A DNA stretch of 32,000 nucleotides from NCBI RefSeq assembly GCF_000011805.1, contig NC_006840.2, one strand, 5' to 3'. Of this stretch, positions 1-17,352 are shown piece after piece. The notes below the pieces were generated by a model that worked only from the letters and a program-made list of their open reading frames with translations, was not told the origin of the DNA and did no database searches. A program made the position numbers and the translations under genes. Numbering within the stretch: the stretch's first letter is position 1; each line of letters starts with the position of its first letter. This DNA is from Aliivibrio fischeri ES114 (GTDB taxonomy: Bacteria; Pseudomonadota; Gammaproteobacteria; Enterobacterales; Vibrionaceae).

Positions 1-274
1 TAAGACCATTGGTATGCGTGTACCGGATAATAAAATTGCTCTGGATCTGTTAGAGGCGTTAGGTGAGCCACTGATGTCTACAACATTGATTTTACCGGGT
101 AATGAAATGGCAGAATCCGATCCTGAAGCAATTCGAGATCAATTAGAACATGCCGTTGATTTAATTATGAATGGTGGTTATTTAGGTGAACAACCAACCA
201 CAGTAATCGACTTTAGTGATGATGATATTAAAATTGCTCGAGTTGGTGCTGGTGATCCAACACCGTTTGAATAA
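1..274 (+). CDS. yciO: YciO (Sua5/YciO/YrdC family), C-terminal part; 5' end outside window
   Basis: The frame is open from nt 2 (KTIGMRVPDNKIALDLLEALGEPLMSTTL...GGYLGEQPTTVIDFSDD). It is collinear with the C-terminus of enterobacterial YciO. Stop at 272-274, followed by a hairpin terminator. Confidence 0.85.
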   Translation, partial: KTIGMRVPDNKIALDLLEALGEPLMSTTLILPGNEMAESDPEAIRDQLEHAVDLIMNGGYLGEQPTTVIDFSDDDIKIARVGAGDPTPFE

Positions 275-292
275 TTAATAAATTATCGAAGT

Positions 293-321
293 AGCCAGAC
301 AGTTGTTCTGGCTATTTTTTT
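293..321. terminator. Rho-independent terminator between convergent yciO and sensor kinase genes
   Basis: Stem agccaga (293-299) pairs with tctggct (307-313). T-run at 315-321. Confidence 0.6.
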
Positions 322-328
322 ATCGGTG

Positions 329-2788: not shown

Positions 2789-2799
2789 TTATATAAAAC

Positions 2800-3942
2800 T
2801 CACTGATTTCGAAGTTTTTTTCTTAGGCTTATAATATTAGCATTGTATGCCTTAAAACTATATTGATTGAAAGCAGATGATGCATTTTTTAAAAGCCAGA
2901 TCCCTTTATAAGTGATTATTCCTGATTTATTTACATCTTGCTCACTTGTGAAAACATAAGGAGATTGAGTTGGTGTCAGTAAATTCATCGATTGATAAAA
3001 TAATACCATTGCTGGTTTTTCTATTATCGTGAATACAATATCTCTTCCACTTTCCTTTAAAGCCATAGCCAATCCTTTTTGTGCTAAATACAGATGATAG
3101 TTAGCTTTAGATTTCTCCCCACTAATAGTAAGTCGAATCGCTTCACATGCCTTTGTTTTATCTAAGATAGAATAAAATAAGTCATTTTCGATTTCGGTAC
3201 TGCTTTTATCAACAAAGTGTGACCTTGCTAACGGACTCATGAATGTCGCATGGGAAAGAGATAACAGTCCATCAGCGTTGAGGTTTGGTTTCCATTTGGT
3301 ATTTTGAAAGAAAGTGTCGAAAAAGAGCCAGTCATGCTTATTCGATGTGGTTTGGATTAAGGCAGATGAAATAATGGTTGGATAGATATTGTTGTCAGTA
3401 TATTGATAGAGAATAAAATGCTCTCCTTTGGACGAAATTTCTAGATGATTTAGCATTTCATACCACTTGTGTTCTTTAATGAAGGTTGCGATATTAATGA
3501 GTACAATGGCATCTGAAAGAGGAAGGGGGTGTTCGCTAAATTCAGTGTGGAAATAACGTTCGTCTGTTGAGATATCTTGAACCAGTTCGTAATGATATTT
3601 TTCATCAATAATGGCTGAGGTACTGTTTTTTTTCGTTACATCTAGATGACGATGAAGTACAGATATTGGTTTATGAATAAGTTTAAACATTTCAAATTCA
3701 GTACTGCATTTCAAAAGACAACCAAAAACTTTGATAGCCATTTGCTCTATATGAAAATAGACCTTAGGTAATGAACTACAAGGTTGTTTTCCTAAGATTT
3801 CTGCCGCTTCTGATGTTGAAAATAAGTATTCCAAATTTCCAATCGTTCCGCCTTCAAATTTATTCAAAATGATTCGTTCTCTTGCATTGATCAGTTGTTG
3901 AAGTAAATTAAAATTCTGCGTTTGAGAACAATAATCGTACAA
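2800..3942 (-). CDS. ainS: Hypothetical 380-aa protein co-transcribed with the hybrid kinase; LuxM/AinS-family acyl-HSL synthase candidate
   Basis: Long ORF in very AT-rich DNA, on the same strand as the kinase with an 11-nt gap. I can name no motif. The size and the position directly upstream of a LuxN-type kinase fit the luxM-luxN / ainS-ainR arrangement. The ORF-track start is a TTG without a good SD (see the T8-tract finding). Confidence 0.5.
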   Translation of the reverse strand: MYDYCSQTQNFNLLQQLINARERIILNKFEGGTIGNLEYLFSTSEAAEILGKQPCSSLPKVYFHIEQMAIKVFGCLLKCSTEFEMFKLIHKPISVLHRHLDVTKKNSTSAIIDEKYHYELVQDISTDERYFHTEFSEHPLPLSDAIVLINIATFIKEHKWYEMLNHLEISSKGEHFILYQYTDNNIYPTIISSALIQTTSNKHDWLFFDTFFQNTKWKPNLNADGLLSLSHATFMSPLARSHFVDKSSTEIENDLFYSILDKTKACEAIRLTISGEKSKANYHLYLAQKGLAMALKESGRDIVFTIIEKPAMVLFYQSMNLLTPTQSPYVFTSEQDVNKSGIITYKGIWLLKNASSAFNQYSFKAYNANIISLRKKLRNQ

Positions 3943-4322
3943 CTCTTTTATAAATTCATATTGCAGGTTTTTTTTCGACTATCTCTTCGTGAGAGATAGA
4001 TGGAAGTGTATTTAAAAGAAGTGTGAAGTTTTTCATAATACTACCTTATTGATTGATAAGTCATTAAAATTGCTGAGGAAATTACTTTCTCAGCATAATC
4101 AGTATAGTAAAAATAGGTAGTGGTGTTATGAGTACTTTGCGTGTCTTACGACAAAAATTAAAATTAAATTTTGATTAAATTCTTACCGCTTATTAGTAAC
4201 AATATTGTATAATCACGCTTCATAGAATTTGATAGTGATTAAGAGTGAAGGATTATCTATTCATCCTCTTGATTAATAAGAAGTTAATTGACGCCTGTGA
4301 AGGCGACATAAAAAGGTAAAGA

Positions 4323-5387
4323 ATGAGCGAAAAATTACAGAAAGTATTAGCACGAGCAGGTCTTGGTTCTCGTCGTGAGCTAGAAACCATGATTCAAGCT
4401 GGTCGTGTTAGTGTTGATGGTCAGAGAGCAAAATTAGGCGACCGCCTAGAAAACGTGGATGCTAAAATCCGTATTGATGGCCATGTCGTATCGGTTAAAG
4501 AGTCAACTGATGTGATCTGTCGAGTACTTGCCTATCATAAACCTGAAGGTGAGCTATGTACACGTCATGACCCTGAAGGTCGTCGTACTGTATTTGATCG
4601 TTTACCAAAAATTCGTGATTCTCGTTGGGTATCAGTTGGCCGTTTGGATGCTAATACCGCTGGTTTATTGCTTTTCACTACAGATGGTGAATTAGCAAAC
4701 CGTTTGATGCACCCAAGTCGTAAAGTTGAACGTGAATACATGTGTCGTGTATTTGGTGAAATTAACGAGAAAATGATTCGTAATCTAGTTACTGGTGTAA
4801 AACTAGAAGACGGTGAAGCGCGTTTTGAAGATGTAATGTACGCCGGCGGTGAAGGTATGAACCATACTTTCTACGTTGTTATTAATGAAGGCCGTAACCG
4901 TGAAGTACGTCGTTTATGGGATTCGCAAGGTGTAACGGTAAGTCGTCTAAAACGTGTTCGTTACGGTGATATCTTCCTTGAGAAAGCTTTACCACGTGGT
5001 GGTTGGATGGAGCTTGAACTTAAAGAAGTTAACTACCTACGTGAGATGGTTGAATTACCGCCAGAGAAAGAAAGTCTACTTGATGTAGATAAAGAGTCTC
5101 GTAAGCGTGCTAAATCAAAAACTCAAAAGATCCGTCGTGCTGTTAAGCGTTATGATGAGCGTTCAACAGAGGAGCGTAATACTCCAGCGGGTCGTCGTGG
5201 CCGCAACAATAAAAAACCAGTTGGTAGTTCACTGCCTTCAGCAAAACGTGGCTCTAATAATGGGGATAGCCAACCTTCTGGTAAGCCACAATCTAAAGGT
5301 AAAAAACCAGCAGCTGGTCAAAAACCAGTAAGAAGTAAGTTTTCACCAAACGGTAAAGCGCCAAAGTCTAAACCTAGACAGCGTTAA
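4323..5387 (+). CDS. rluB: 23S rRNA pseudouridine synthase RluB
   Basis: N-terminal S4 domain ([21 protein letters not shown]). RsuA/RluB catalytic core ([26 protein letters not shown]). Lys/Arg/Gly-rich C-terminal tail. Syntenic with yciK and sohB. Confidence 0.92.
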
Positions 5388-5420
5388 TTGCATCGTTAAA
5401 AACACTTAGATGAATAATAA

Positions 5421-5453
5421 AAGGGTTGTACCGTAAGGTAGCAACCCTTTTTT
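5421..5453. terminator. Bidirectional rho-independent terminator (rluB / yciK convergent)
   Basis: Stem aagggttg (5421-5428) pairs with caaccctt (5442-5449). Inner stem tacc/ggta. A-run upstream and T-run downstream. Confidence 0.7.
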
Positions 5454-5471
5454 GTTCGTCTCTTTAAAAAT

Positions 5472-6233
5472 TTATTTTGGCTGAGCATCAATACATTGAC
5501 TGTGTACGTTAACGCCTTCTGGTGCCATTAAATACACATAAAGAGGCATAATGTCTTTTGGTGTTTTAAGTAAACTAATATCTTCAGCTGGAAAAGCTTG
5601 AGCACGCATACGAGTGTGTGTGCCACCAGGATTGATAGCATTCACTTTTACAGTCGTTCCTTCCATTTCATGCGCCAGTGTCTGCATCATACCTTCTGTT
5701 GCGAATTTGGAGATAGCATAGGCTCCCCAGAATGCTCGCCCTTGGTGTCCAACTGTTGAAGTGGTAAAGACAATTCGAGCATCATCAGATTGTTGTAAAA
5801 CAGGAAGTAGGGCTTGTGTCATCAAAAATTGAGCTTTGACATTGATCTGCATGACTTCATCAAAAATGGATTCTTCAAATTGTTCAAACGGACTAAGCAT
5901 ACCCAATAGGCCAGCATTATGAAGAAGGCCATCTAGCTTTCCAAATTGGCTTTGAATGGTTTCAGCCATGTCAACGTAGTGCTGTTTGGTGGCACCTTTT
6001 AAATCTAAAGGAACAATTGCAGGTGTTGGGTAGCCTGCTGCTTCAATCTCATCATAGACCGCTTCTAATTTAGCGACAGTGCGCCCTAATAAAATAACGG
6101 TAGCACCATGTTGAGCATAATGTAAGGCGGCTTGTTTACCAATACCATCACCAGCACCAGTAACTAAAATAACTTTATTTTTTAATGCGTCAGAAGAAAC
6201 CTGATAATCCACTCTGTAATCCTTGTATTTCAA
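5472..6233 (-). CDS. yciK: YciK-family short-chain dehydrogenase/reductase
   Basis: VTGAGDGIG NAD(P)-binding motif and YAISKFATEG catalytic YxxxK. Collinear with E. coli YciK over its full length. Conserved position next to sohB. Confidence 0.88.
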   Translation of the reverse strand: MKYKDYRVDYQVSSDALKNKVILVTGAGDGIGKQAALHYAQHGATVILLGRTVAKLEAVYDEIEAAGYPTPAIVPLDLKGATKQHYVDMAETIQSQFGKLDGLLHNAGLLGMLSPFEQFEESIFDEVMQINVKAQFLMTQALLPVLQQSDDARIVFTTSTVGHQGRAFWGAYAISKFATEGMMQTLAHEMEGTTVKVNAINPGGTHTRMRAQAFPAEDISLLKTPKDIMPLYVYLMAPEGVNVHSQCIDAQPK

Positions 6234-6375
6234 CGTTCACCTTGAGAAATTTTTACAAATTTGTATTGTAAGTTGATGTAAAAATGCGCGTTTAGTGCGA
6301 TTTATTATCATAATGTGAACTAACTTCGAGTTAAGTCGAGTACAATACACGAAACATACTTAAGAGGGTATTACA

Positions 6376-7437
6376 TTGGAATTTTTGTTTGATTACGGTC
6401 TCTTTTTAGCAAAGATCGCCACCGTTGTTGTTTCTATTATTGCCATTTTAGTTGCAGCTAAAGCAGTGGGTGGTAAATCGACTGGTGCGAAAGGTGAATT
6501 AGAGGTAACTAACTTAACTGAGCAGTATAAAGATACTGTTGTGGAGTTAGAACATCATTTATTTGATGATGCAGAGTTAAAAGCGCGAGCTAAGGCCGAA
6601 AAGAAAGCAGAAAAAGAAACGGAAAAAGCAAAACAAAAAGAGATTAAGCAAGCTGCAAAATCTGGTGAGCTTGAATTAAAACGTGATGCCCGTTTATTTG
6701 TCTTAGATTTTAATGGCAGTATCGATGCGAAAGAAGTAGCAGCGCTACGTGAGGAAGTATCAGCTATCTTAGCGGTTGCTATTGAAGGCGACGAAGTACT
6801 TTTACGTCTTGAAAGTGGTGGTGGTATGGTTCATGGTTATGGCCTTGCTTCATCTCAACTTGATCGCTTACGTGATGCGAATATTAAATTAACGATTTCT
6901 GTTGATAAAGTTGCGGCATCAGGTGGTTATATGATGGCGTGTATTGGCGAAAAAATCATTGCTGCACCGTTTGCAATCGTTGGCTCGATTGGTGTTGTTG
7001 CTCAGTTGCCAAATTTCAATAAATTATTGAAGAAAAATGATATTGAATTTGAGCAATTAACCGCTGGTGAATACAAACGTACCCTAACAATGTTTGGCGA
7101 AAATAGCGATAAAGCACGTGAAAAATTCCAACTAGAATTGGAAGAAACTCATGTTTTATTTAAAGATTTTATTCGTGAACATCGTTCAGAGCTAGATCTG
7201 GAAAAAGTAGCAACAGGCGAGCATTGGTTTGGTAAACAAGCGTTAGAGTTAGGTCTAATTGATGAGATTCAAACGTCGGATGATTATTTAACAAAAGCGT
7301 GTAAAGATCGTGAAGTTTTAGCGATTCATTACGTTCAAAAGAAAAAGTTAAGCGATAAAATTGCGGGGATTGCAGGTCAGTCTGCGGAGAACGTATTTAT
7401 GCGTTTAATTAGCAAAGGTCAGCGACCGATTGTTTAA
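6376..7437 (+). CDS. sohB: SohB, inner-membrane S49-family peptidase
   Basis: TTG start. N-terminus (M)EFLFDYGLFLAKI matches the SohB N-terminus. S49 core motif AASGGYMMAC. Confidence 0.9.
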   Translation: MEFLFDYGLFLAKIATVVVSIIAILVAAKAVGGKSTGAKGELEVTNLTEQYKDTVVELEHHLFDDAELKARAKAEKKAEKETEKAKQKEIKQAAKSGELELKRDARLFVLDFNGSIDAKEVAALREEVSAILAVAIEGDEVLLRLESGGGMVHGYGLASSQLDRLRDANIKLTISVDKVAASGGYMMACIGEKIIAAPFAIVGSIGVVAQLPNFNKLLKKNDIEFEQLTAGEYKRTLTMFGENSDKAREKFQLELEETHVLFKDFIREHRSELDLEKVATGEHWFGKQALELGLIDEIQTSDDYLTKACKDREVLAIHYVQKKKLSDKIAGIAGQSAENVFMRLISKGQRPIV

Positions 7438-7509
7438 TTTTTGATGCAAGAAAGCGCATTAATTTAGACCATATCTGTTCAGTGATTTACAGGATAGATA
7501 TGACAAAAA

Positions 7510-7533
7510 AGGCTGAGATTTCAGTCTTATTTG
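7510..7533 (+). terminator. Probable sohB terminator hairpin
   Basis: Stem aggctga (7510-7516) pairs with tcagtct (7521-7527) with one mismatch. Followed by tatttg. Confidence 0.4.
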
Positions 7534-7609
7534 AGATTTTAATGCTTTGATTTATATTGTAACCTAGACTTATATCGCCACAAATTGCCCACATTCTGTT
7601 AGGAATAAA

Positions 7610-7638
7610 GCCGTACATATAGCATGTGCGGCTTTTTT
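7610..7638 (+). terminator. Strong orphan rho-independent terminator with no ORF in front of it
   Basis: Stem gccgtacat (7610-7618) pairs with atgtgcggc (7624-7632): 9 bp including one G-U. T6 run at 7633-7638. It lies immediately after a GTTAGGA core-like heptamer (7598-7604). Confidence 0.55.
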
Positions 7639-7803
7639 ATAGATGATTTTTACTAAATTAACTTAGTGAAAATAGTAAATTTGGGCTAAATTAGTAAATT
7701 TAAAACAATTAACGATATGCTATTCTGTATTTAGGGTGCGGTTTAATTTATACTTTACTATGAATCTGATTTGTATAATAAAATGTTATATGCAAGGAGT
7801 AAA

Positions 7804-8220
7804 ATGGAACAGATATTCAATAACTTAACATCACTTGATTGGTGGTTTACTGGTATTTTCTTTGTACTTGTTGGCTTGTTCTTTAATTGGTTATTCAAGT
7901 GGTTTCCATCTACATTTAAAAAGTTAAATAGGAATAATCGAGCTAAGCGATTGAAAAAAATTAGGCACTTAAGATGGAGTCAATCAGAAATTAATTATGA
8001 AATAAGCAAAGCAACTGGTCGCTTTGTTGTTTTTTGCATAATTTGCCTCAGCTACTTAAGTTGGTTAGCTTATAAACCGGTTCAAAATATCTTTGATTTA
8101 CATATTATTGTTGGGTTAATTTTTTCATTACCGCATCTATATTCATGGAATTTCTGTGGCTTAACCAAGCATGCTAAAGTTAAAGCACTTCAATCAGGTT
8201 GCAACGAAAATTGCGTATAA
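7804..8220 (+). CDS. Hypothetical small membrane protein (about 3 TM helices), first gene of array
   Basis: AGGAG at 7795-7799 precedes ATG 7804, which is in frame with the ORF-track start at 7771. Hydrophobic segments include WWFTGIFFVLVGLFFNWLF, FVVFCIICLSYLSWLAY and IIVGLIFSL. The stop TAA is embedded in the attC-1 inverse core. Confidence 0.6.
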   Translation: MEQIFNNLTSLDWWFTGIFFVLVGLFFNWLFKWFPSTFKKLNRNNRAKRLKKIRHLRWSQSEINYEISKATGRFVVFCIICLSYLSWLAYKPVQNIFDLHIIVGLIFSLPHLYSWNFCGLTKHAKVKALQSGCNENCV

Positions 8221-8325
8221 CAAAGCCATCACCGCGCATGCTTCATAATATTCGGCGTTTCTGGTTTGACAGTATAATTGGTTTGGAAGGTGCAGTCGTC
8301 AGCACGTGTTATGGCGGCGTTAAAT
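8215..8325 (+). repeat. attC-1 (family C, ~105-111 bp)
   Basis: Inverse core GTATAAC at 8215-8221 and core GTTAAAT at 8319-8325. The internal sequence is closely related to attC-7 (shared agtataattggtttggaa...gcacgtgttat.gcggc). Confidence 0.8.
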
Positions 8326-8340
8326 TCATTTGGAGATATT

Positions 8341-9291
8341 GTGCTGAAAGAAACAAAAATTGAACACCCGTATTTAGGAAAGTTGTCTTCAAATGCGTAT
8401 GTTAGCGCTCTTGGTAATGTTATCGAAACTTTGTCGATACATTTGACGCAATCAGAAATTAATGCACTAAAAAAGAAACTACAATTAACAACAAAAAACT
8501 TTAATGAGCCGCAATATCTTCAAACTGCGTGTGAGTTAAGTGTTTGTGCCTACTTTGCAGAAAAATTTAGTCAGGGATTTAAATACGAAGATAAAGTAAA
8601 CCCACCAAAAGATGTTGATTGTTCAGTTTATCATGATTATGCAAAATATAACATAGAGGTAAAATGCGCTACATTTTCTGATGATGAGAAACTAAAGAGT
8701 GAAGACTGCTTTAGGATGAGTGCCATAGGTAGAATGGAAGAGTACCCAGACTTAATTGAAAAACTTAGTGATGTGTTTTCAACTTCACCTAGTGGAAAGC
8801 CGTTGAAGGTATATAAGCACAAAGATAATAATCTTAAAGACTTTCTTATTAGTGCACATGAAAAGTTTTCAGATGAGGTTTACTGTGACATTGTTAATAT
8901 ACTTTGGGTGTGCTGTGACGATCCAATGGATATGACGAAGTGGACAGGTTACTTAACTGGTCTAAATGGTTTGTTTACATCTGATTCTTTCGTGGATCGA
9001 AATTTGTATAGTAAAGTTGATGTTGTTGTACTCTCCAACCTTTATCATCGCCATGCTAAATATCAGACTAAAAAAAATCTGGAAAATTATTGGAGTGTAG
9101 ATTCGTCGTTTAACATTATGTTTTGTAATCCGGGTCGATTGTCAAATAAAGAAATAGCAATTAAAAAATTCTACGAAATAGTACCTAATTTTTGTAAAGA
9201 AGTGATGGATTATGATGCTCCAGATCCATTAAAGCTTTCTGCATTTGTTGTTCATGAGTTAAAGGGGAAAGGGTTGTATTATTTCGATTAA
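8341..9291 (+). CDS. Hypothetical protein with PD-(D/E)xK nuclease-like motif arrangement
   Basis: The ORF-track start at 8278 lies inside attC-1. In-frame GTG 8341 follows GGAGA (8333-8337); ATG 8311 is an alternative. Motif series: TACELSVCAYF ... PPKDVDCSV ... YNIEVKC (E, D, ExK). Confidence 0.6.
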   Translation: MLKETKIEHPYLGKLSSNAYVSALGNVIETLSIHLTQSEINALKKKLQLTTKNFNEPQYLQTACELSVCAYFAEKFSQGFKYEDKVNPPKDVDCSVYHDYAKYNIEVKCATFSDDEKLKSEDCFRMSAIGRMEEYPDLIEKLSDVFSTSPSGKPLKVYKHKDNNLKDFLISAHEKFSDEVYCDIVNILWVCCDDPMDMTKWTGYLTGLNGLFTSDSFVDRNLYSKVDVVVLSNLYHRHAKYQTKKNLENYWSVDSSFNIMFCNPGRLSNKEIAIKKFYEIVPNFCKEVMDYDAPDPLKLSAFVVHELKGKGLYYFD

Positions 9292-9298
9292 AAAATGA

Positions 9299-9423
9299 AT
9301 TTAACAAATGCATCAATACGATTTATTACACTCGGCATCCCAAGTTGTCGGGTGTTTCTCGTTTTAAGGCGTCAATATTAAGTATATTTGCATAGTAGTA
9401 AACGTGTTATGCAGGCGTTAGGC
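9299..9423 (+). repeat. attC-2 (family A, 125 bp)
   Basis: Inverse core ATTTAAC at 9299-9305 and core GTTAGGC at 9417-9423. Near-identical to attC-3. Confidence 0.9.
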
Positions 9424-9457
9424 GATTTTAAGTAGTATATAACTAGAGGTATGATTA

Positions 9458-10618
9458 GTGAATTTATATGAGCCTAGGTTCAATGCAGATAGGTTACATC
9501 CGTATTTTATCAGATTAGTTACTGATGAAAATTACGAACCAGTTAAAGATGTGATTCTTAATTGGGCTGATGGTATGGATGGTAGAAAAGGAGAACTTAT
9601 AAAGTTTATTGATGAATTTCAATTAAGTTTTAATTCATCATTATGGGAGTTGTACTTAAATGCTGCATTTAAGTATATCGGATTTGATATTGATTACTCT
9701 AAAGAGTCTCCTGATTTCTGTTTAACATCTAAATGTGGCAAAGTAGTAAATGTTGAAGCGGTAACAACTAATAATTCACGAAATAAAGATAAATCATATT
9801 ACGATAGTAAATCTATAAGTGAGTCAACGTCTCAAGATAATAAAGAATTCCTTGATGAGTCCACAATAAAGTTACTTGGGGCTATTAGAGAAAAACGAAA
9901 TCTGTTTATTGGTGAAGATAAAAAAGCACATCCATACTCTTCTTTAGAGCATGTCAAAGATAATCCTTTTGTTATTGCTGTTGCTCCATTTGATAATCAT
10001 TTGTCATTTACACAGAATAATACAGCTATTAACCGTGTTTTGTTTGGAATTGATCCTCCAAGACAAAATCATAGGGGGGAGCTAGTTAGAGACGATGTTG
10101 AACATGTAATTAAGAAGAACGGGACAAAATTAGATGTAGGTATATTTACAAATGATTCGTACAAGGAAATAAGCGCGGTAATTTTTTCTACTACAGGAAT
10201 GTTTGGTAAAGCAATTTTACAAAGTAAAATTGATGCAATGGTTAGAGCTACCAAGTATCGAGAATATAGTAAGAAAAAATTTCTATCAAATAAGCGAAAG
10301 AATAAAATAGGGCAGTCAGTTAAGAGGTTGAGTAAAACACATGAAATATATTCAATTCGATATCTGATAGGGGATTTAGTTGCTGGCTCAGATGTTCATT
10401 TTTGTCATGCTTCAGAATGGCATGAAAGCCATATCGATGGGTTACATATTTATTACAATCCATATGCAGAAATAAAGCTCGATAAAAAATTATTCAATAC
10501 ATTCCAAATAACTCAGAATAGCTTTGACATCAAAAATGATTGCGAAGTGCAAATCCACCCTGATGGTTCCTTGGTTTCAAGACAGGTGATGACAAGTTAC
10601 GAGGAAGAAATCGCCTAA
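9458..10618 (+). CDS. Hypothetical protein, PD-(D/E)xK-like N-terminal core (variant lacking the Lys)
   Basis: GTG start after AGAGG. 386-aa ORF. Motif series: LWELYLNAAFKY ... SPDFCLTS ... VNVEAVTT. The stop TAA lies within the attC-3 inverse core GCCTAAC. Confidence 0.6.
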   Translation: MNLYEPRFNADRLHPYFIRLVTDENYEPVKDVILNWADGMDGRKGELIKFIDEFQLSFNSSLWELYLNAAFKYIGFDIDYSKESPDFCLTSKCGKVVNVEAVTTNNSRNKDKSYYDSKSISESTSQDNKEFLDESTIKLLGAIREKRNLFIGEDKKAHPYSSLEHVKDNPFVIAVAPFDNHLSFTQNNTAINRVLFGIDPPRQNHRGELVRDDVEHVIKKNGTKLDVGIFTNDSYKEISAVIFSTTGMFGKAILQSKIDAMVRATKYREYSKKKFLSNKRKNKIGQSVKRLSKTHEIYSIRYLIGDLVAGSDVHFCHASEWHESHIDGLHIYYNPYAEIKLDKKLFNTFQITQNSFDIKNDCEVQIHPDGSLVSRQVMTSYEEEIA

Positions 10619-10738
10619 CAAATGCATCAACACGATTTACTACACTCGGCATCCTCAGGTTGTCGGGTGTTTCTCGTTTTAGGGTGTCGATTTTAAGTAT
10701 AATTGCTTGGTAGTAAACGTGTTATGCAGGCGTTATAT
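10613..10738 (+). repeat. attC-3 (family A, 126 bp)
   Basis: Inverse core GCCTAAC at 10613-10619 and core GTTATAT at 10732-10738. Confidence 0.9.
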
Positions 10739-10859
10739 CTAAATAAAGCTGTACAATAGAACCTACTGATATTATTATACTTTTGCATGAGCGTTTCGCT
10801 TAAATTGCTGCAATCGAAAATGAAAAATATTTGTATATTGCTCTTAATTGAGCGCTGAA

Positions 10860-11050
10860 TAGTGAAGATCTAGTTACTTATCAGCTTGTGCCAAGGGGCA
10901 CACCCTATGCCTGCCTCGTCTTTTGACCGAGAGTAGTCGAGGACAATAGGCTTAGCCAAACTAAACGGTGGCTGTTTACAAATATTATCGATGAATGCAA
11001 CACCGTTTGTTAATCTCTAGAGTATGAGTGGCTAGGCCTTTATTGTGCTA
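10860..11050 (+). ncRNA. Candidate retron msr/msd-type structured non-coding RNA upstream of the RT (boundaries unresolved)
   Basis: There is no credible ORF in 10739-11060. Nested inverted repeats:
- hairpin gtgcc/ggcac (10888-10892 / 10897-10901)
- hairpin cctcg/cgagg (10914-10918 / 10938-10942)
- long composite hairpin with a ~14-bp outer stem (10943-10957 / 11030-11046) and a 9-bp inner stem (10962-10970 / 11001-11009)
The structure ends 14 nt before the RT ATG. Confidence 0.45.
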
Positions 11051-11060
11051 AAGTGGAATT

Positions 11061-12248
11061 ATGTATCAATTAGAACCTATCAAAAAAACCAAGCAAGTCA
11101 TCGCCTCAATTCCTAATTTATGTTCTGCTTTAGATATAACTATTGATGAGTTGAATAAAGCTCTATCACTATCTTCTGAAGAACGCTATGTTCAAGGGAA
11201 AGTTTCAAAAAGTGATGGTAGCTATCGAGATGTTTATAATCCTCATAATCTAATCAGAAAGATTCAGCGACGGATTAATCGTAGAATTTTTATAAAATTA
11301 GTGGGCTGGCCTAGTTATATATTTGGTTCGATACCAAATAATATAGATAAAAATGGTAAGGTATTAGAAGCCAAAGATTATGTAAACTGTGCTGCTCAGC
11401 ATTGTTTAGCAAAAAGCTTGTTAAAGATGGATCTTAAAGATTTTTTTAACAATATTCATATAGATCATGTCAAAGAAATGTTTGAGAAATTTTTTAACTA
11501 TCCTAAAGATGTTTCTGAGGCATTAAGCAATATTTGCTGTAGAGGGGACTCTCTGGTTCAAGGAGCCTTAACATCAAGTTATATAGCAAGTTTGTGTTTA
11601 TGGGATCTTGAGCCACATTTAGTTAAAAGACTAAAAAGAAAGCAGCTAATTTATACAAGATTAGTTGATGATATAACTGTGTCTTCTAAAATATCAAACT
11701 TTCAGTTTGATATGACTATTGAGCATATTACATCTATGCTACATGAAATGGATTTACCAATAAATAATAGTAAAACCAAGGTTGCTTATACATCAATTGA
11801 ACCTTTAACAGTACATGGAATGAGAGTTAACTTTAAAGAACCAAGATACCCATCAGACGAAGTTAGAAGGCTAAGAGCTGCCGTTCATAATATTGAAAGT
11901 TTAGCCTCAGAGCCCGGTTATAGAGTAACATTTGCATATAGAAAAGATTTTAACCGATGTATGGGACGTGTTAATAAACTAAAAAGGGTTGAACATGAAA
12001 AGCACCAAACATTGGTTAATAAATTATTAAAAATCCTTCCTCTTCCATCGGAAAAGGATTTAAAACGTTGTAAGGCATCCATTCTTCGGTTAGAAACTGA
12101 TTTCCCGCTTAAAGGTGATACGTATTGGTACAGGAAGCGGTTTTATATCGTTCATGATCGATTAAATGTGTTGCAAAGAACTTATAAGAGAACGGCGTTG
12201 AAATTAAGAAATAGAATGAAACCAATTAGGCCTGAATATGATGATTAA
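11061..12248 (+). CDS. Retron-type reverse transcriptase (395 aa)
   Basis: RT motifs in order: SYRDVYNPHNLIRKIQRRI; NCAAQH (NAxxH-like); MDLKDFFNNI; LVQGALTSSY; YTRLVDDITVSS; NNSKTKV; LTVHGMRVN (VTG-like). It is compact, with no maturase or endonuclease domain. It is preceded by a structured leader and followed by an overlapping effector gene. Confidence 0.8.
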   Translation: MYQLEPIKKTKQVIASIPNLCSALDITIDELNKALSLSSEERYVQGKVSKSDGSYRDVYNPHNLIRKIQRRINRRIFIKLVGWPSYIFGSIPNNIDKNGKVLEAKDYVNCAAQHCLAKSLLKMDLKDFFNNIHIDHVKEMFEKFFNYPKDVSEALSNICCRGDSLVQGALTSSYIASLCLWDLEPHLVKRLKRKQLIYTRLVDDITVSSKISNFQFDMTIEHITSMLHEMDLPINNSKTKVAYTSIEPLTVHGMRVNFKEPRYPSDEVRRLRAAVHNIESLASEPGYRVTFAYRKDFNRCMGRVNKLKRVEHEKHQTLVNKLLKILPLPSEKDLKRCKASILRLETDFPLKGDTYWYRKRFYIVHDRLNVLQRTYKRTALKLRNRMKPIRPEYDD

Positions 12249-12963
12249 AATAATAAATTCGAACAAAGCACTTCGAAATCTTGTTTTCATATTTATATTT
12301 GTTGGTGCTATTGGTCTTTTGTTGTCTTTATTATCAATAATCATGACTATGTTGAATAATGAAACTTATAACTTAAACGTATGTTTGACAAGTAGCTGTA
12401 TGAAATATACATACGGTTTATTTGAGTACTCTCTTAAAATTATCAATATCACAATAACTTGTTTAACCTCGATTGCTACTATTGGGGGGATTTTTGTTGC
12501 TTTATTAAGCTATGTTAGTACTTCAAACAGTAGTGCATTAAATAATCATATTTCGCACTTTAAAATATTTAATGATTATTTAGTTTTTGAAATATCAAAA
12601 TCCGATAGATTAAATGTCTCAGCTATAGATATATTTAAGCTATATAACCTTATTTTTAGTTCTTCACGCTCAGGAAATATGGATGTATCAAAGCAATACA
12701 AACAAGTCGTGGAATCTTTAAATCAAGAAATAAATAACTCTAATCAATATGTTCAAGAAGCTGAGCCTGAATCATTTAGATATAAAAATCATCAGGTAAG
12801 AATGATCAGTCGTTTTGAATCCTTTGGTATTCAATTAAATTTTCATCCGAGAAATGATTTTTATGAAATTGAGGGTCAATTATTAGAGTTGATATCTACG
12901 ATTAATCAGGCTTTTTGTACGGATAGTATGCTTCCTAATATTGTTCATCGTAAATATATTTAG
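12238..12963 (+). CDS. Two-TM protein with unknown C-terminal domain; putative retron effector
   Basis: ATGATG at 12238 overlaps the RT stop (12246-12248) by 11 nt. TM helices LVFIFIFVGAIGLLLSLLSIIMTML and ITITCLTSIATIGGIFVALLSYV. About 145 aa of soluble C-terminus. Confidence 0.7.
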   Translation: MMIKIINSNKALRNLVFIFIFVGAIGLLLSLLSIIMTMLNNETYNLNVCLTSSCMKYTYGLFEYSLKIINITITCLTSIATIGGIFVALLSYVSTSNSSALNNHISHFKIFNDYLVFEISKSDRLNVSAIDIFKLYNLIFSSSRSGNMDVSKQYKQVVESLNQEINNSNQYVQEAEPESFRYKNHQVRMISRFESFGIQLNFHPRNDFYEIEGQLLELISTINQAFCTDSMLPNIVHRKYI

Positions 12964-13098
12964 ATATAACGAATGCATCAACACGATTTGCTACATTCGG
13001 CATTCTAGGTTTCTTTGGCTTTACCGTGTTAAGTGGTAAATTTAGGCTTAATCTGCATAGTAGCAGACGTGTTATGCTGGCAAAATTAGGAGTTAGGA
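12964..13098 (+). repeat. attC-4 (family B) with degenerate or displaced R' core
   Basis: Inverse core ATATAAC at 12964-12970. The right arm gcatagtagcagacgtgttatgctggc is followed by AAAATT where GTTRRR is expected. The nearest core-like heptamer, GTTAGGA, is at 13092-13098 within TTAGGA-G-TTAGGA. Confidence 0.7.
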
Positions 13099-13100
13099 AC

Positions 13101-13664
13101 TTGAAAGGTTTAGATATAAATAGGCAGTTTAATATGATCTTGCGGGCTATCTCTGCAATTATTCTACTTTTAGTACCAATTTACTTTGGGTATTTAGGAA
13201 AGACGACTGAAATGGGGTTACTCATTGTTTCTGGTTTTTTAGGTTTAGTTTTTTCTAGCTTAGATAAATTTGAAAGCTTTAAAGCCGGTGGGGTTGAAGC
13301 CAAATTAAGGTATGAACAAATTAAAGCTGTTTTAGAAAAGGAAATTGAACCAGAGTATTCTAATGAAACTGAGTCTTCGGATATTAATAATCCAAACTTG
13401 AAACTAGTTCCTGAAAATGCACAATCTGTCTTAACGGCTTTAAATAATTCAGATTATACGTGGCGTTATGTTTCTGGTATTAGTCAATCGATAAAATTAG
13501 ATAGAATTGATGTTAAGGCAGCACTTAAATGGCTCTTTGAACATGGGTACGTTAAGAAATCTATTGGCAAAAACGGTCAGATTTGGACGGTAACTTCAGA
13601 AGGTAGGAATTTATACGTGAGGATTCGATTCAAAGATGTACAAGGTGGGGTTGTGCCAGCATAA
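13101..13664 (+). CDS. Hypothetical membrane-anchored protein with C-terminal winged-helix-like domain
   Basis: The ORF-track start at 13026 lies inside attC-4. In-frame TTG 13101 follows AGGAG (13088-13092); ATG 13134 is an alternative. Two hydrophobic helices (ISAIILLLVPIYFGY, LLIVSGFLGLVFS). The C-terminus YTWRYVSGISQSIKLDRIDVKAALKWLFEHGYVKK...GQIWTVTSEG looks wHTH-like. Confidence 0.55.
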   Translation: MKGLDINRQFNMILRAISAIILLLVPIYFGYLGKTTEMGLLIVSGFLGLVFSSLDKFESFKAGGVEAKLRYEQIKAVLEKEIEPEYSNETESSDINNPNLKLVPENAQSVLTALNNSDYTWRYVSGISQSIKLDRIDVKAALKWLFEHGYVKKSIGKNGQIWTVTSEGRNLYVRIRFKDVQGGVVPA

Positions 13665-13782
13665 CGCCTGCATCACACGACTTGCTATGCTCGGCATTCT
13701 AGATTTCTTTGAGTTTACCGTTTTAAGTGATAAATTTTGGCTTAATCTGCATGGTAGCAAACGTGTTATGCAGGCGTTATGT
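13659..13782 (+). repeat. attC-5 (family B, 124 bp)
   Basis: Inverse core GCATAAC at 13659-13665, which contains the stop of the preceding ORF. Core GTTATGT at 13776-13782. Confidence 0.9.
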
Positions 13783-13796
13783 TTTCGAGGTATATA

Positions 13797-14267
13797 ATGA
13801 AGTTAAACCCATATGATGATTTTATTTTCTTTGATTCTTGTGCATTTAATGGCGGTAAATTAGAAATGCAGGAAGCATCTATGCAATCACGTTATTTGTT
13901 AGAATTGAATAATAAGAAAGTTACGTTAATGCATTCTGTTGTGGATGAAATTAATGCCCCGCATACACCTCCGTGGATTCAAGAGTTGGAGCCAAATTCG
14001 CGTAAGACTGTGAAGCTTAACTTAACTTCTTGTGAACAAACTATATTGGCTGATATTACATCAATTGTTGTCGGTAATGGAAAACCAGAAAAACGTGCAG
14101 CGGATTGCTTTCACGTATTTGAAGCTCAAAAATATGGAGGATTCTTTGTTACATCAGATAATGGAATACTTAGACACAAACTAAAAATTAAAGAAAAGTA
14201 TGACTTAAATATAATCGATCCAATAGAGTTTTTAAGTTTAGTACAAGAGTTCAGCCCTGAAACATAA
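13797..14267 (+). CDS. PIN-domain-like protein (putative ribonuclease), no partner gene in cassette
   Basis: ATG 13797 follows GAGG; ATG 13779 is also in frame. Four acidic positions show PIN-like spacing: FFDSCAF, VVDEINAP, AADCFHVFEA, FVTSDNGIL. Confidence 0.45.
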   Translation: MKLNPYDDFIFFDSCAFNGGKLEMQEASMQSRYLLELNNKKVTLMHSVVDEINAPHTPPWIQELEPNSRKTVKLNLTSCEQTILADITSIVVGNGKPEKRAADCFHVFEAQKYGGFFVTSDNGILRHKLKIKEKYDLNIIDPIEFLSLVQEFSPET

Positions 14268-14385
14268 CAAATGCATCAACATGATTTGCTACATTCGGCA
14301 TTCTAGGTTTCTTTTTGTTTTCCGTATTAAGTGGTAAATTTAAGCTTGGTTTGCATGGTAGCAAACGTGTTTGCCAGCGTTATGT
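14262..14385 (+). repeat. attC-6 (family B, 124 bp)
   Basis: Inverse core ACATAAC at 14262-14268 and core GTTATGT at 14379-14385. Confidence 0.88.
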
Positions 14386-14445
14386 GCTTTAAGCGATATC
14401 TAGTTAGTTTGGTATGTGATTAATAATTCGTCGTATAGTTAGATA

Positions 14446-14473
14446 TAAGGGCAGCTAATTTCAACTGCCCTTA
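14446..14473 (-). terminator. Hairpin downstream of the reverse small ORF
   Basis: Stem taagggcag (14446-14454) pairs with ctgccctta (14465-14473). There is no clear U-tract. Confidence 0.35.
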
Positions 14474-14488
14474 AGAACCTAAAATGTT

Positions 14489-14638
14489 TTAATTTTTACA
14501 ACCGTTTTTATCACAAGTGATTTTGTTGTGTGAATCTACCCAATGAGTTGATTCTTTTTTTGTATCGAATCCACATCCAGTAATACCACCTTTCTTACCG
14601 TTATGAACTATGCCAGTTGGTGTATGTTTGACTGCCAT
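14489..14638 (-). CDS. Small 49-aa Cys/His-containing protein, reverse-oriented in its cassette (not in ORF track)
   Basis: Hand translation: MAVKHTPTGIVHNGKKGGITGCGFDTKKESTHWVDSHNKITCDKNGCKN. AAGGAA SD lies 7-8 nt upstream of the ATG (14636-14638, reverse complement). A 9-bp hairpin lies downstream at 14446-14473. Confidence 0.5.
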   Translation of the reverse strand: MAVKHTPTGIVHNGKKGGITGCGFDTKKESTHWVDSHNKITCDKNGCKN

Positions 14639-14769
14639 ATAATTATTTCCTTATTTCAAAGTATGCCTGATTGGCGAGGCTATTCTAAAGTTGAAATAGC
14701 AAATAAAACTGCGTACTTTATGACATATTTTAAGTAAAAATTTAATAAAATAGGTATTTGTGAGTTAGC

Positions 14770-14873
14770 GCATAACAAAGCAACCAACATGATGATTACA
14801 CTTAGCATTCGCGGTTTAGAGTATAATTGGTTTGGAAAGTAAGTCGTTCGCACGTGTTATTGCGGCATTATGT
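14770..14873 (+). repeat. attC-7 (family C) with mutated core (ATTATGT instead of GTTATGT)
   Basis: Inverse core GCATAAC at 14770-14776. The right end is cacgtgttattgcggcATTATGT (14867-14873). The internal sequence matches attC-1. Confidence 0.75.
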
Positions 14874-14894
14874 GTTTAAAAGTAGGAAATAGTA

Positions 14895-15131
14895 GTGAGT
14901 TACGATAATCTGATTGTCCAATATAGAAAAATGTCTCTTGAGGAGCTAGAAAATGAACTTTTATTTCCATATCTTGATGAAAACTTAAAAGATATTGTGT
15001 TAAATGAAATTTCTTTAAGGCGCAGTAGAAAAATAACTTGGCACACTATTTTGTCGTTGGCTTTATCTGTTTTTGCTTTATTGATATCTGTTGCTACAGG
15101 ATGGAATTCAATTGTAGCTTGGTTTTCATGA
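14895..15131 (+). CDS. Small tail-anchored membrane protein (78 aa), hypothetical
   Basis: GTG start after AGGAAA. Soluble acidic N-terminus and a C-terminal TM helix, ILSLALSVFALLISVATGW. Confidence 0.5.
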   Translation: MSYDNLIVQYRKMSLEELENELLFPYLDENLKDIVLNEISLRRSRKITWHTILSLALSVFALLISVATGWNSIVAWFS

Positions 15132-15139
15132 GTTATGAG

Positions 15140-15164
15140 GCTCCCTATATTTATTATAGGGAGC
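15140..15164. terminator. Perfect 10-bp hairpin shared by convergent small genes
   Basis: Stem gctccctata (15140-15149) pairs with tatagggagc (15155-15164). There is no strong U-tract on either side. Confidence 0.45.
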
Positions 15165-15170
15165 AAAAAT

Positions 15171-15302
15171 TTATTCACCTTTTTTATGTTTATGTACTTT
15201 CAATGAACTGTGGTTTGGTTTATTTTCAGGTGTTACTCGTTGTCTTTTATCCTCTTTCCCTGTTGACTTAGCGATTGGTTTCGGACCTGGTTTTATAGTC
15301 AT
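15171..15302 (-). CDS. Small basic 43-aa protein, reverse-oriented (not in ORF track)
   Basis: Hand translation: MTIKPGPKPIAKSTGKEDKRQRVTPENKPNHSSLKVHKHKKGE. A GGAGA SD lies 5 nt upstream of the ATG (15300-15302, reverse complement). Confidence 0.4.
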   Translation of the reverse strand: MTIKPGPKPIAKSTGKEDKRQRVTPENKPNHSSLKVHKHKKGE

Positions 15303-15435
15303 AATATTCTCCATTTAATATGATGTGGATTAACATTTTTCCACCGTATTAATATGGCCTGAGTGAAGTTGGTTCGTATACTAAAATTTTTTGTATATTT
15401 GTCGTTATATGCGCATTTATGTGACAAATAAACAC

Positions 15436-15556
15436 ACATAAATGCATCCACATGATTTGCTACATTCGGTGTTGTGGTTTTTTTTGGTTTACTGCGTTTA
15501 ATGGTAAATCTGGGCTTAGTTTGCATGGTAGCAAATTTGTTATGCAGGCGTTATAT
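15436..15556 (+). repeat. attC-8 (family B) with damaged inverse core
   Basis: The left end reads acataa-atgcatcc. Two nt are missing relative to acataacaaatgcatc of attC-6, so the AAC triplet is lost. Core GTTATAT at 15550-15556. Confidence 0.75.
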
Positions 15557-15571
15557 TTTAATGAGGAAAGT

Positions 15572-16090
15572 ATGTTCGAATGGTTTGAAAGTATTTTTGT
15601 TACATCGAGTGATAAATCTAGATTTATCGCAATTGTTGTTTCAACTTTTGTAGCTATCTTTGTTTTGTTATTAAGCCAGAGGTTTACAACAAAACGTGAA
15701 CGTTCGAAGTTATTAATCGAAAAAATTGAAGAAATGTATAAAGTTTCAATCGATTATTCTAGTGCTGCTAATCAGATACTTAAAGATCTTAATAATCCAA
15801 AGAAATATGATAAAAATGGATATTACATCATCGATCAAGTGGTATATGGGAATATGAATGATTCAATTAGAAAAATGGAAATGCTGTGTGGCCTTTATTT
15901 TCCTAAAATTGAGTTTAAGGTAAGTGATTATTCGATAGTTAATATGCCAATCGTTAATATTGCCATAAAAGGGAAAAAATTAAATGAGGGTGAAGCCTAT
16001 CATATTTATGAGGATTCCCGAAATTATATAATTAATGCAGAACAAAAAATCACAAAATTATGTAGAGAGCTTATAAGAAAATATGTGTAA
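15572..16090 (+). CDS. Hypothetical protein with N-terminal TM anchor (172 aa)
   Basis: The ORF-track start at 15452 lies in attC-8. ATG 15572 follows GAGGAAAG. TM helix FIAIVVSTFVAIFVLLL. The rest is soluble with no recognisable motif. Confidence 0.55.
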   Translation: MFEWFESIFVTSSDKSRFIAIVVSTFVAIFVLLLSQRFTTKRERSKLLIEKIEEMYKVSIDYSSAANQILKDLNNPKKYDKNGYYIIDQVVYGNMNDSIRKMEMLCGLYFPKIEFKVSDYSIVNMPIVNIAIKGKKLNEGEAYHIYEDSRNYIINAEQKITKLCRELIRKYV

Positions 16091-16095
16091 AAGAT

Positions 16096-16158
16096 ATATA
16101 ACAAATGCATCAATAACGATTTGCTACACTCGGCATATTAGTCTGCCGAGTGTTTTTT
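16096..16158 (+). repeat. attC-9, truncated (left half of a family-A attC only)
   Basis: Inverse core ATATAAC at 16096-16102, then the left arm caaatgcatcaataacgatttgctacactcggca. A perfect 10-bp hairpin (acactcggca 16126-16135 / tgccgagtgt 16144-16153) is followed by T6. There is no right arm or GTT core. The methyltransferase fragment begins at 16168. Confidence 0.7.
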
Positions 16159-16167
16159 CATTTAATA

Positions 16168-17093
16168 TTAACCTTTAAATGTATTAATTGTTTTTGTATA
16201 CATTTCTTCTTCCATCTCAATCCCCACAAACTTTCTATTAAGTGCTAAGCACGCTTTTCCTGTTGAACCAGATCCCATAAATGCATCAAGTACCACTGCA
16301 CCTTCTCGACTACTACTTGCAATAATATGCTCGAGTAAATTTGCAGGTTTTTCACAAGGGTGTTTGCCTGGATAATATTGAACTGGTGCAAATGTCCATA
16401 CGTCGGTATAAGGTACTTCGGCTGTGACATGAAAAGGCCTTCTGAGGTTTTCATATTCCGCTTTTAGTTCATCGTATTCCTTGATCAGTTTTCCGTATTC
16501 ATTGTGCAATGCTTGGTACTCAGTTGTAAGGTCGGAGTGTGATTTGGGTAATTGACCACTTTTTGATGCGAACAAGGTTTGCAGTTGTTGGTATTGTTTC
16601 TCTGTGGGCAGTTTCCATTGACTCGATGAAAACCAGTGTGAGCACATTTGTGTGCCAGTGGCCTCATTGATTTCTTTTGCTGAGATATTGAGTGCGTCCT
16701 TCGTGTTTTTGAAATAATCCATCAGTGGTTTAAAGGTGGTTTTTTTTAGTTCATTGCATTTGGTTGCGTACTGGCTACATCCTTTCGCGTATCCTTCAGA
16801 GTCATAATGTCCCGCAAAGATAATACGTTCAGTCGCAGGAAAGAACGCCCGTAAGTGCGGTTTGTGCGCGCGTTTCCACACCCCTGAAGGTTTCGCCCAA
16901 AAAATGTGATTAAATACGTTAAATCGCGCACGAATAAGCAACTCAGTATCCGCTGTTAACTTTGAACCGCAAAATAGATATAAGTTGCCAGAAGGTTTTA
17001 GTACTCGCCAAAATTCAACAAGCACTTCATCAAGCCATGCCAGGAAGGTTTCTACATCTGGCCATTGATTATCCCAGGCGTGATTTAAGCAGT
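16168..17093 (-). pseudogene. N-terminally truncated N6/N4 DNA methyltransferase (beta-class) fragment
   Basis: The C-terminal AdoMet motif region is present: HPCEKPANLLEHII...VLDAFMGSGSTGKACLALNRKFVGIEMEE. The reading frame is open upstream of the GTG to ...HCLNHAWDNQWPDVETFLAWLDE, then hits TAA at 17094-17096. The N-terminal (D/S)PPY motif is absent. Confidence 0.75.
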
Positions 17094-17352
17094 GTTATAA
17101 AGAATTCTATCAAGTTTTAAAGAGTATTGATTTTGAATTCCCTAAAGGGCAGGCAGTGCATGTATTGAGGCATACGTTTGTAAGTCACTTTAATATAAAT
17201 GTAAGGAATATTTTGACTTTAAAGAAAATTTTGGGCCACGGATAGTATTGCAAACAATGGCATATGCTCATTTAGCGCCAGATTATTTAGCTAAGCAGTG
17301 GAATATACCTTATTGTCTACACTATGACCGAATAGGGGCAGCAGGTTTGTAA
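17084..17352 (+). pseudogene. C-terminal fragment of a phage-type tyrosine recombinase, frameshifted
   Basis: Frame 1 reads FYQVLKSIDFEFPKGQAVHVLRHTFVSHF...NILTLKKILGHG then a stop. Frame +1 continues IVLQTMAYAHLAPDYL..., ending at TAA 17350-17352. This covers the box II HxLRHT motif and the catalytic Tyr region. No N-terminal part is present. Confidence 0.75.

Follow-up and report, generated by a model that had tools for sequence, protein, structure and literature searches.

What is a reverse transcriptase gene doing inside an array of integron-type attC repeats, and does it travel with them? The question is raised by a stretch of 32,000 nucleotides (nt) of Aliivibrio fischeri ES114 chromosome I (NC_006840.2; hereafter the window, whose positions are used throughout), in which an earlier note, made from the letters alone, had seen a retron-like reverse transcriptase (RT), an overlapping gene with two transmembrane (2-TM) helices and a structured leader packaged as a single gene cassette, leaving the clade of the RT undecided. 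We consider it very likely that positions 10733-13081 are a complete type IV (Ec48 / Retron-Eco6) retron that was captured whole as one cassette and that works like Ec48. The two genes are VF_1044 (RT) and VF_1045 (effector), and direct support comes from the protein families, purifying selection on both genes, a covarying RNA, the cassette boundaries and copies in other arrays.

The RT gene (11061-12248, plus strand; 395 amino acids, aa; AAW85539/WP_011261677) matched the PADLOC profile RT_IV with 587 bits (E = 4.8e-177), residues 6-391 aligning to positions 2-385 of the 386 in the profile, which settles the clade; the next-best PADLOC profiles were RT_V (233 bits) and RT_VI (187 bits), and the protein also matches Pfam RVT_1. 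The best matches in a PDB sequence search were all retron RTs of other types, with no type IV retron structure among the matches. Its partner, VF_1045 (AAW85540; 12238-12963, plus strand; 241 aa), shares an 11-nt overlap with the RT open reading frame (ORF) and matched PADLOC 2TM_IV from end to end (E = 2.1e-82) and NCBIfam NF038235 (retron_Ec48_2TM) with 246 bits against a cutoff of 65; its RefSeq name is already "retron Ec48 family effector membrane protein". Type IV retrons have been defined by a clade 3 RT with a 2-TM protein just downstream or overlapping, the described member being Retron-Eco6 (Ec48) (PMC7736814), and because the RT_IV and 2TM_IV/NF038235 matches fit this definition, the A. 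fischeri system is assigned by profile matching to type IV, that is, to the Ec48 / Retron-Eco6 family.

In an alignment of 25 relatives, the catalytic residues D203 and D204 (encoded at 11667-11672) never vary, and conservation of L201 and V202 is at least 90%; LVDD, which had been thought unusual, is thus normal for the type IV retron RT family. The retron signature motifs NAXXH and VTG occur only in the variant forms N109-C-A-A-Q-H114 and V251-H-G253, both of which are kept in the family (C110, A111, H114 and H252 invariant; V251 and G253 at least 90% conserved). Against the sister cassettes described below, the ratio of nonsynonymous to synonymous substitution rates (dN/dS) is 0.09-0.11 for the RT and 0.07-0.08 for the effector, and it is from this purifying selection (0.07-0.11 across both genes) that we argue that the 241-aa ORF is translated.

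The effector family is marked by the motifs ALNNHISHF, WYNLIF, GSFRYK-HQ and PRNDFYEIE and by two invariant Cys in the loop joining the TM helices. A profile search of 1.84 billion representatives returned 253 effector proteins, nearly all of 220-260 aa and matched end to end; given this, the C-terminal domain is absent from other architectures. The C-terminal region, listed earlier as an unknown domain and hence an oddity, is always paired with the two TM helices in these 253 cluster representatives, and is the conserved core that defines the Ec48 effector family. Structurally, the AlphaFold2 model (predicted local distance difference test, pLDDT, 88.9) is all-helical, with TM2 running on into a very long helix, and a Foldseek search of it against PDB and BFVD gave no match better than E = 0.6. 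The positive-inside rule would place the N-terminus (K4, K10, R13) and the C-terminal domain in the cytoplasm and the Cys loop in the periplasm.

The RT family is common in Gamma- and Betaproteobacteria (619 matches; 50 genome loci). An effector homologue follows the RT in 49 of the 53 loci examined, among them three E. coli loci with the RefSeq annotation Ec48 family, which sit in P2/P4-like prophage or island contexts, and a P2-like phage also bears an RT of this family. The E. coli members share 45-57% identity with the ES114 RT and 28-40% with the ES114 effector, and a metagenome search added one further relative with an indistinct boundary (L061, 78% aa identity). The gene lengths (395 and 241 aa) fall in the family range and equal those of non-cassette relatives, which rules out a "streamlined" integron version of the retron. 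Separately, a 69%-identical, non-cassette type IV retron lies on a Vibrio lentus contig (L060, 746-9645), where its neighbours are another RT gene and an AAA_15 ATPase gene; this contig also carries Rep3 and Mob_Pre genes and is therefore probably a small mobilisable plasmid.

The array around the retron spans ~7.7-16.15 kb (7700-16150), between sohB (SohB, AAW85535) and DUF2498/topA (TopA, AAW85546), and has a GC content of 0.30-0.36 as against 0.41-0.42 in its flanks. A 21-nt attC consensus had four matches in the window where none was expected, and more copies were recovered by BLAST. The attC of the preceding cassette (10612-10732, plus strand) aligns with the other repeats, and its bottom strand folds into a long imperfect hairpin (z = -3.3); it carries R'' GCCTAAC at 10612-10618 and the core GTTATAT at 10732-10738, with the recombination point between G10732 and T10733. 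The 5' boundary of the retron, G10732↓TTATATC (the arrow marking recombination), fits the G↓TTRRRY rule of this preceding attC. The retron cassette's own attC (12965-13081, plus strand) aligns with the upstream one, with L boxes present and R'' ATATAAC at 12965-12971, and the effector stop codon falls within this R'' inverted repeat. Three cassettes in a row open at G↓TT with 6 nt that are the reverse complement of the cassette's own R'' (GTTAAAT at 8316 with ATTTAAC at 9297, GTTAGGC at 9418 with GCCTAAC at 10612, and GTTATAT at 10732 with ATATAAC at 12965). The flanking repeats are real attC sites. The mobile unit (10733-13081, plus strand; ~2.35 kb) begins with TTATATCTAAAT and ends at the last base common to the sister copies; the coordinates given earlier for the ORFs, the DD, the leader and the upstream core all match the recomputed positions, and the one that has to be moved is the right-hand core at 13092-13098, since GTTAGGA there is 10 nt out of register and sister homology ends at 13081. 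The cassette just upstream (9419-10732; ORF 9458-10618) encodes a full-length homologue of PD-T7-5, a single-gene defence system (PADLOC, 1e-133), so that two adjacent cassettes are both defence systems.

The retron travels whole as one integron gene cassette, as its occurrence in other arrays with different neighbours attests. Over 10617-13081, copies with 93.6-94.4% nt identity were found in L054 (GCA_001557995.1), in L057 (Photobacterium phosphoreum) and in the metagenome sequences L058 and L059, with those of L054, L057 and L059 lying in different arrays; L056 holds a 74%-identical version, whose flanks we take to be Vibrio cholerae-type repeats (VCR-type attC). Every copy has the start G↓TTATATCTAAAT and the end ATTTAGATATAAC, which form a 12-nt inverted repeat, and these start and end motifs are identical in six other contigs. 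The start G↓TTATATC stands behind four different upstream attCs (five other contigs), and three different downstream cassettes follow in three other contigs, opening with G↓TTATAT, G↓TTATGC and G↓TTATAC. At their right-hand ends the sister copies read GGCG↓TTA, and the sister attC folds canonically (z = -3.4). The integron-cassette reading of the earlier note is therefore borne out by the recovery of the unit elsewhere, with differing neighbours on both sides.

Some of these arrays have features of their own. In L057 (221-2166), the attC in front of the retron cassette is separated by ~80 bp from an IS91-type Y2 transposase and a XerC/D-like recombinase, an insertion sequence (IS) element having apparently inserted at the margin of the array; that the P. 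phosphoreum copy is the first cassette of a complete integron was considered and rejected, the adjacent recombinase, by the IS91-type transposase, scoring 164 bits against an integron-integrase cutoff of 265. Around its retron, the L054 array (1-17188) has many cassettes of defence-like content (two OLD-like TOPRIM/AAA_15 proteins, a SieB-domain protein and an ASCH protein). A plasmid search returned attC matches only and no retron; the A. wodanis plasmids LN554850.1 and LN554848.1 (hits H11 and H12) carry three and five attC repeats of the same family at 90-91% identity, and could be vehicles for cassette transfer between Aliivibrio strains.

Between the cassette boundary and the RT gene lies a leader of 328 nt (10733-11060), in which the longest ORF on either strand is at most 32 aa and no credible small ORF was found, in keeping with the ~320 nt lacking a credible ORF that had been described earlier. 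Leaders were compared over the 260-280 nt upstream of the RT at up to 50 loci, with helix counts taken on a MAFFT alignment of 26 sequences, and the structured leader proposed by the earlier note emerges as a covarying msr-msd RNA with a1/a2 repeats. The leader fold has z = -3.8. Across nine helices, 90% of alignment cells are paired as against 76% in shuffles (none of 500 shuffles being as good), 44 of the 55 pairs show compensatory changes, and slid controls give 31-47% pairing. The non-coding RNA (ncRNA) starts with a 5' hairpin, H0 (TGAGCG-TTT-CGCTTA; 10788-10802, plus strand like all RNA features here), with 98.7% of cells paired and four of six pairs compensatory. The a1 strand (10805-10835) consists of the outer helices TTGC (10805-10808) and TCGA (10814-10817) and the core AATATTTGTA (10826-10835), and the a2 strand (10977-11000) of the core TACAAATATT (10977-10986) and the partners TCGA (10988-10991) and GCAA (10997-11000); the two cores form a perfect 10-nt inverted repeat. 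Across loci this core keeps its position while its sequence varies, and it is 62% paired in the MAFFT alignment owing to register shifts, with the two flanking helices at 96-98% and showing compensatory changes. In 52 loci the a2 stretch (30-33 nt) is complementary over its full length to a segment ~126 nt upstream, which is the a1 strand. G10833 is probably the branching G.

Two msr hairpins follow, GCTC/GAGC (10840-10853; 95% paired, three of four pairs compensatory) and GCTGA/TCAGC (10854-10885; 94% paired, four of five pairs compensatory), and a third (~10887-10902) appears in the minimum-free-energy (MFE) fold alone. Further downstream, a GAG(T/G)AG motif lies 46-48 nt from a2 in 26 of 26 aligned relatives. 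Because this spacing matches the length of the multicopy single-stranded DNA (msDNA) of Ec48/Eco6, reported as 48 nt and as 45 nt by sequencing (PMC8989520), we predict a 48-nt msDNA, 5'-AACAGCCACCGTTTAGTTTGGCTAAGCCTATTGTCCTCGACTACTCTC-3', which would be templated by the msd at 10929-10976. No Rfam family reached its gathering score in the window, with chance-level matches alone at 10600-11200, and the RT-1 to RT-19 motifs of PMC5737381 thus do not cover this leader RNA.

Beyond a2, RNAalifold favoured long-range helices across a1/a2, which define a 3' element (10948-11039) made up of helix Px (10948-10958 with 11029-11039), helix Py (10960-10970 with 11001-11010) and a small hairpin (11014-11028). 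The a2 strand is the 30-33-nt apical loop of this element, and Px and Py cross a1/a2. A covariance model (R1, 101 positions) detected the element in 52 of 58 sources, a single time per locus and in every case immediately 5' of the RT, with no further matches in 510 kb; it also found sequences outside its seed, such as E. coli loci at 80, 51 and 48 bits, and the ES114 element scores 87 bits, in the range of other family members. In the R1 alignment, which was fitted to the covariance model, 94.9% of cells are paired as against 66.7% when shuffled, 23 of 25 pairs show compensatory changes and some columns hold four pair types in near-equal numbers; the MAFFT alignment gives 94% pairing for Px and 95% for Py.

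Of the 48 template nt, 29 pair in the precursor with the RNA strand beyond a2, which is not copied. Within the template side, GCCA (10955-10958) can alternatively pair locally with TGGC (10970-10973), the hairpin that the msDNA would adopt, and both partners co-vary (ACCA with TGGT in L020 and L022). Geometrically, a 6-nt linker would have to span ~23 helical steps, so that the helices, if all fully formed, would not fit into one straight stack, and the 3' element is therefore likely to sit in a kinked pseudoknot or a switch. We suggest, tentatively and at rather less than even odds, that type IV retrons hold their a2 priming site within the apical loop of a long, strongly covarying helix formed by the msd template and a non-transcribed "anti-msd" strand 3' of a2. 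If so, the msDNA of type IV retrons would be the smallest because only one strand of the stem is copied, and the pseudoknot or conformational switch would be needed for priming or for linking msDNA synthesis to what becomes of the RT-effector mRNA. The proposal that the 3' element masks the RT ribosome-binding site once the template is removed was dropped, as unpaired probabilities in the full leader and in the 3' fragment showed no consistent pattern at 18 loci (3 of 21 lacking a scorable Shine-Dalgarno motif). We found no description of the 3' element in the literature searched; published retron ncRNA consensus structures were trimmed at a1 and a2 (PMC7736814), and the element may be undescribed for that reason.

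Transcription of all this could begin inside the cassette. A consensus scan predicts a sigma-70 promoter, TGTACA-17 nt-TATTAT (10750-10778, plus strand), whose position is conserved in 26 relatives: anchored on the 5' hairpin, the 26 loci show a TTGCAT-like -35 box, a 17-nt spacer and a TAnnnT -10 box ~7 nt before the hairpin, and transcription would start at ~10785-10788. The cassette boundary is just 17 nt upstream of the -35 box. As the predicted promoter lies within it, the cassette, which seems to carry a whole transcription unit with almost no spare sequence, should not need the integron Pc promoter, and the conserved internal promoter contradicts the presumption that it is promoter-dependent.

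How, then, would the retron act? What we infer beyond the observations is use of the promoter, the branching G, the production and length of the msDNA, the trigger and the mode of killing. From the promoter in the cassette, a single RNA would span the msr-msd leader and, behind it, the genes for the RT and the 2-TM effector, which overlap in translation. The RT would prime on the branching G beside the a1/a2 duplex and copy ~48 nt of msd into a small branched msDNA, and the RT-msDNA complex would hold the membrane effector inactive for as long as no phage interferes with a host function, as in Ec48. The released effector would then compromise the membrane, and the infected cell would die before phage release (abortive infection). 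For Ec48, the guarded function is RecBCD, which is inhibited by proteins such as lambda Gam or T7 gp5.9; these inhibitors, or loss of RecB, trigger death, and defence needs both RT activity and the TM helices (10.1101/2020.06.21.156273). Triggering of types IV and V by Gam has been confirmed (10.1101/2025.10.22.683967).

Several points weigh against so close a parallel. The Ec48 effector alone is non-toxic when overexpressed (PMC8989520), so that even in the Ec48 system the "pore-forming toxin" step is unproven. The trigger may also differ from RecBCD inhibition, given the just 45-57% (RT) and 28-40% (effector) identity to E. coli members. The promoter of the window is a consensus match only and has a weak -35 box (TGTACA), the signature motifs of the RT are present solely as variants (CAAQH, VHG), and with the R' core gone from the ES114 attC, the mobility of this copy may have ended.

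The last point bears on the strongest rival, namely that the retron is a decaying relic, stranded in an integrase-less attC cluster and neither expressed nor protective. No integron integrase was found in the window and none left of the array, and the integron of ES114 sits on chromosome II (PMC11014356; PMC1382264), while the array is on chromosome I between sohB and topA; for these reasons the chromosome I array is an attC cluster without an integrase, although missing intI and attI do not disqualify the retron cassette as a cassette. After 13081, where sister copies have GGCG↓TTA, ES114 reads GGC followed by AAAATTAGGAGTTAGGA; the attC of the retron cassette has substitutions in the stem and lacks R' in register, and its bottom-strand MFE structure is not the canonical hairpin (z = -1.8). 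The R'' of the next cassette, GCATAAC (13659-13665), predicts a TTATGC start that is absent. The right-hand recombination point of the ES114 copy thus appears lost, and the junction (13082-13098 / 13659-13783) suggests a small deletion or rearrangement that fused two cassettes. Rightmost in the array comes a truncated attC (16095-16150), bordered by a type II DNA methyltransferase gene cut short at its N-terminal end (16168-17025, minus strand) and then by a C-terminal remnant of a tyrosine recombinase with in-frame stops (~17080-17320, plus strand); 16095-17320 is a degraded array end or a remnant of another element. The surroundings left of the array are ordinary chromosome and point to the Vibrionaceae, with genes for a hybrid sensor kinase and for an acyl-homoserine-lactone synthase of LuxM/AinS type (329-3942, minus strand). 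However, lost mobility does not imply lost function: both ORFs are full length against their profiles with the catalytic DD intact, dN/dS is 0.07-0.11 for both genes, and the 87 bits of the 3' element are normal for the family. We accordingly regard a relic as improbable.

Less probable still is a retron that serves mainly as an addiction (toxin-antitoxin-like) module stabilising the cassette cluster, in the manner of toxin-antitoxin cassettes in Vibrio superintegrons, with phage defence secondary. Some retrons act as tripartite toxin-antitoxin systems, according to work cited in PMC12082036, the P. phosphoreum sister array has ParE/Phd and TacA-type cassettes nearby, and the cassette persists in an array without an integrase; but the lone Ec48 effector is non-toxic (PMC8989520), and the neighbouring cassette is the defence gene PD-T7-5, which fits a defence role. 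Finally, that the protein is another defence RT (DRT/UG or Abi), a group II intron RT or the RT of a diversity-generating retroelement (DGR) and merely retron-like is highly improbable, as its LVDD in place of YADD and its weak NCBIfam matches (E = 3e-7 to 4e-8) to group II intron RT (33 bits against a cutoff of 300), Drt3a (30 against 200), Drt2 (24 against 390) and AbiA (26 against 250) are set against scores about ten-fold under those cutoffs, a full-length RT_IV match of 587 bits, best PDB matches that are all retron RTs, and a partner gene and an upstream a1/a2 RNA that are retron features; the grouping with group II or DGR RTs that the earlier note had named as speaking against a retron is not what these scores, far under the NCBIfam cutoffs, point to.

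Taking the system, then, as a type IV retron, it resembles Retron-Eco6 (Ec48) in the order of ncRNA, RT and a 2-TM effector overlapping or abutting the RT, in the shared RT and effector profile families, in a 46-48-nt msd spacing that corresponds to the 48-nt msDNA, and in the 3' RNA element, for which E. coli family loci score 48-80 bits. It differs in the RT and effector identities given above and in its setting, the A. fischeri copy being an attC-bounded cassette whereas the E. coli copies lie in P2/P4-like prophages or islands. The clade 3 sister groups, type V (Retron-Sen1/Se72) and type VI (Retron-Vpa2), have related RTs (the 233 and 187 bits above), and the type VI RNA also reaches beyond the canonical msr-msd (10.1101/2025.10.22.683967). 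Unlike type V, with its cold-shock-domain protein, and type VI, with a helix-turn-helix protein and a small toxic peptide, the A. fischeri system has a 2-TM effector as partner, no credible small ORF in its leader and no consistent sequestration of the ribosome-binding site. The 2-TM effectors of CBASS (cyclic oligonucleotide-based antiphage signalling system) and of similar abortive-infection systems likewise have two N-terminal TM helices and a presumed role in membrane disruption (an analogy from 10.1101/2020.06.21.156273); the A. fischeri effector, in contrast, shows no detected sequence or fold similarity to them (Foldseek against PDB and BFVD, no match better than E = 0.6), and its presumably cytoplasmic helical domain is specific to the Ec48 effector family.

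That integron cassettes carry defence systems is well established (10.1101/2024.07.02.601686; 10.1101/2024.07.02.601719). Like the defence cassettes of sedentary chromosomal integrons, the retron is a complete system between two attC sites, beside another defence cassette, in a Vibrionaceae array; unlike them, it is not streamlined but large (~2.35 kb), with two genes, an RNA gene and its own predicted promoter, and it sits in a cluster without an integrase, away from the main integron. The word "retron" is absent from the main text and one supplementary file of 10.1101/2024.07.02.601686, and 10.1101/2024.07.02.601719 mentions it only for retron-escaping T7 mutants. In the literature searched we found no paper describing a retron as an integron cassette and none describing the A. 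fischeri retron.

The retron family itself is already known and annotated in RefSeq, and the main interest here is its transport as one integron gene cassette. The predicted internal promoter is relevant to the unsettled origin of cassettes, since a cassette that includes its promoter would not stem from reverse transcription of its own mRNA. Naturally delimited, ~2.35 kb long and with its own predicted promoter, 10733-13081 suits functional tests, and the family-wide 3' element offers a testable addition to the model of type IV retrons. Above all, the cassette represents a route of retron spread, in which the predicted promoter, RNA gene, RT and effector move together among Aliivibrio/Photobacterium-type arrays and, judging from the repeats that flank the L056 version, presumably also reach a Vibrio cholerae-type array, whereas in E. 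coli the same family rides P2/P4-like prophages.

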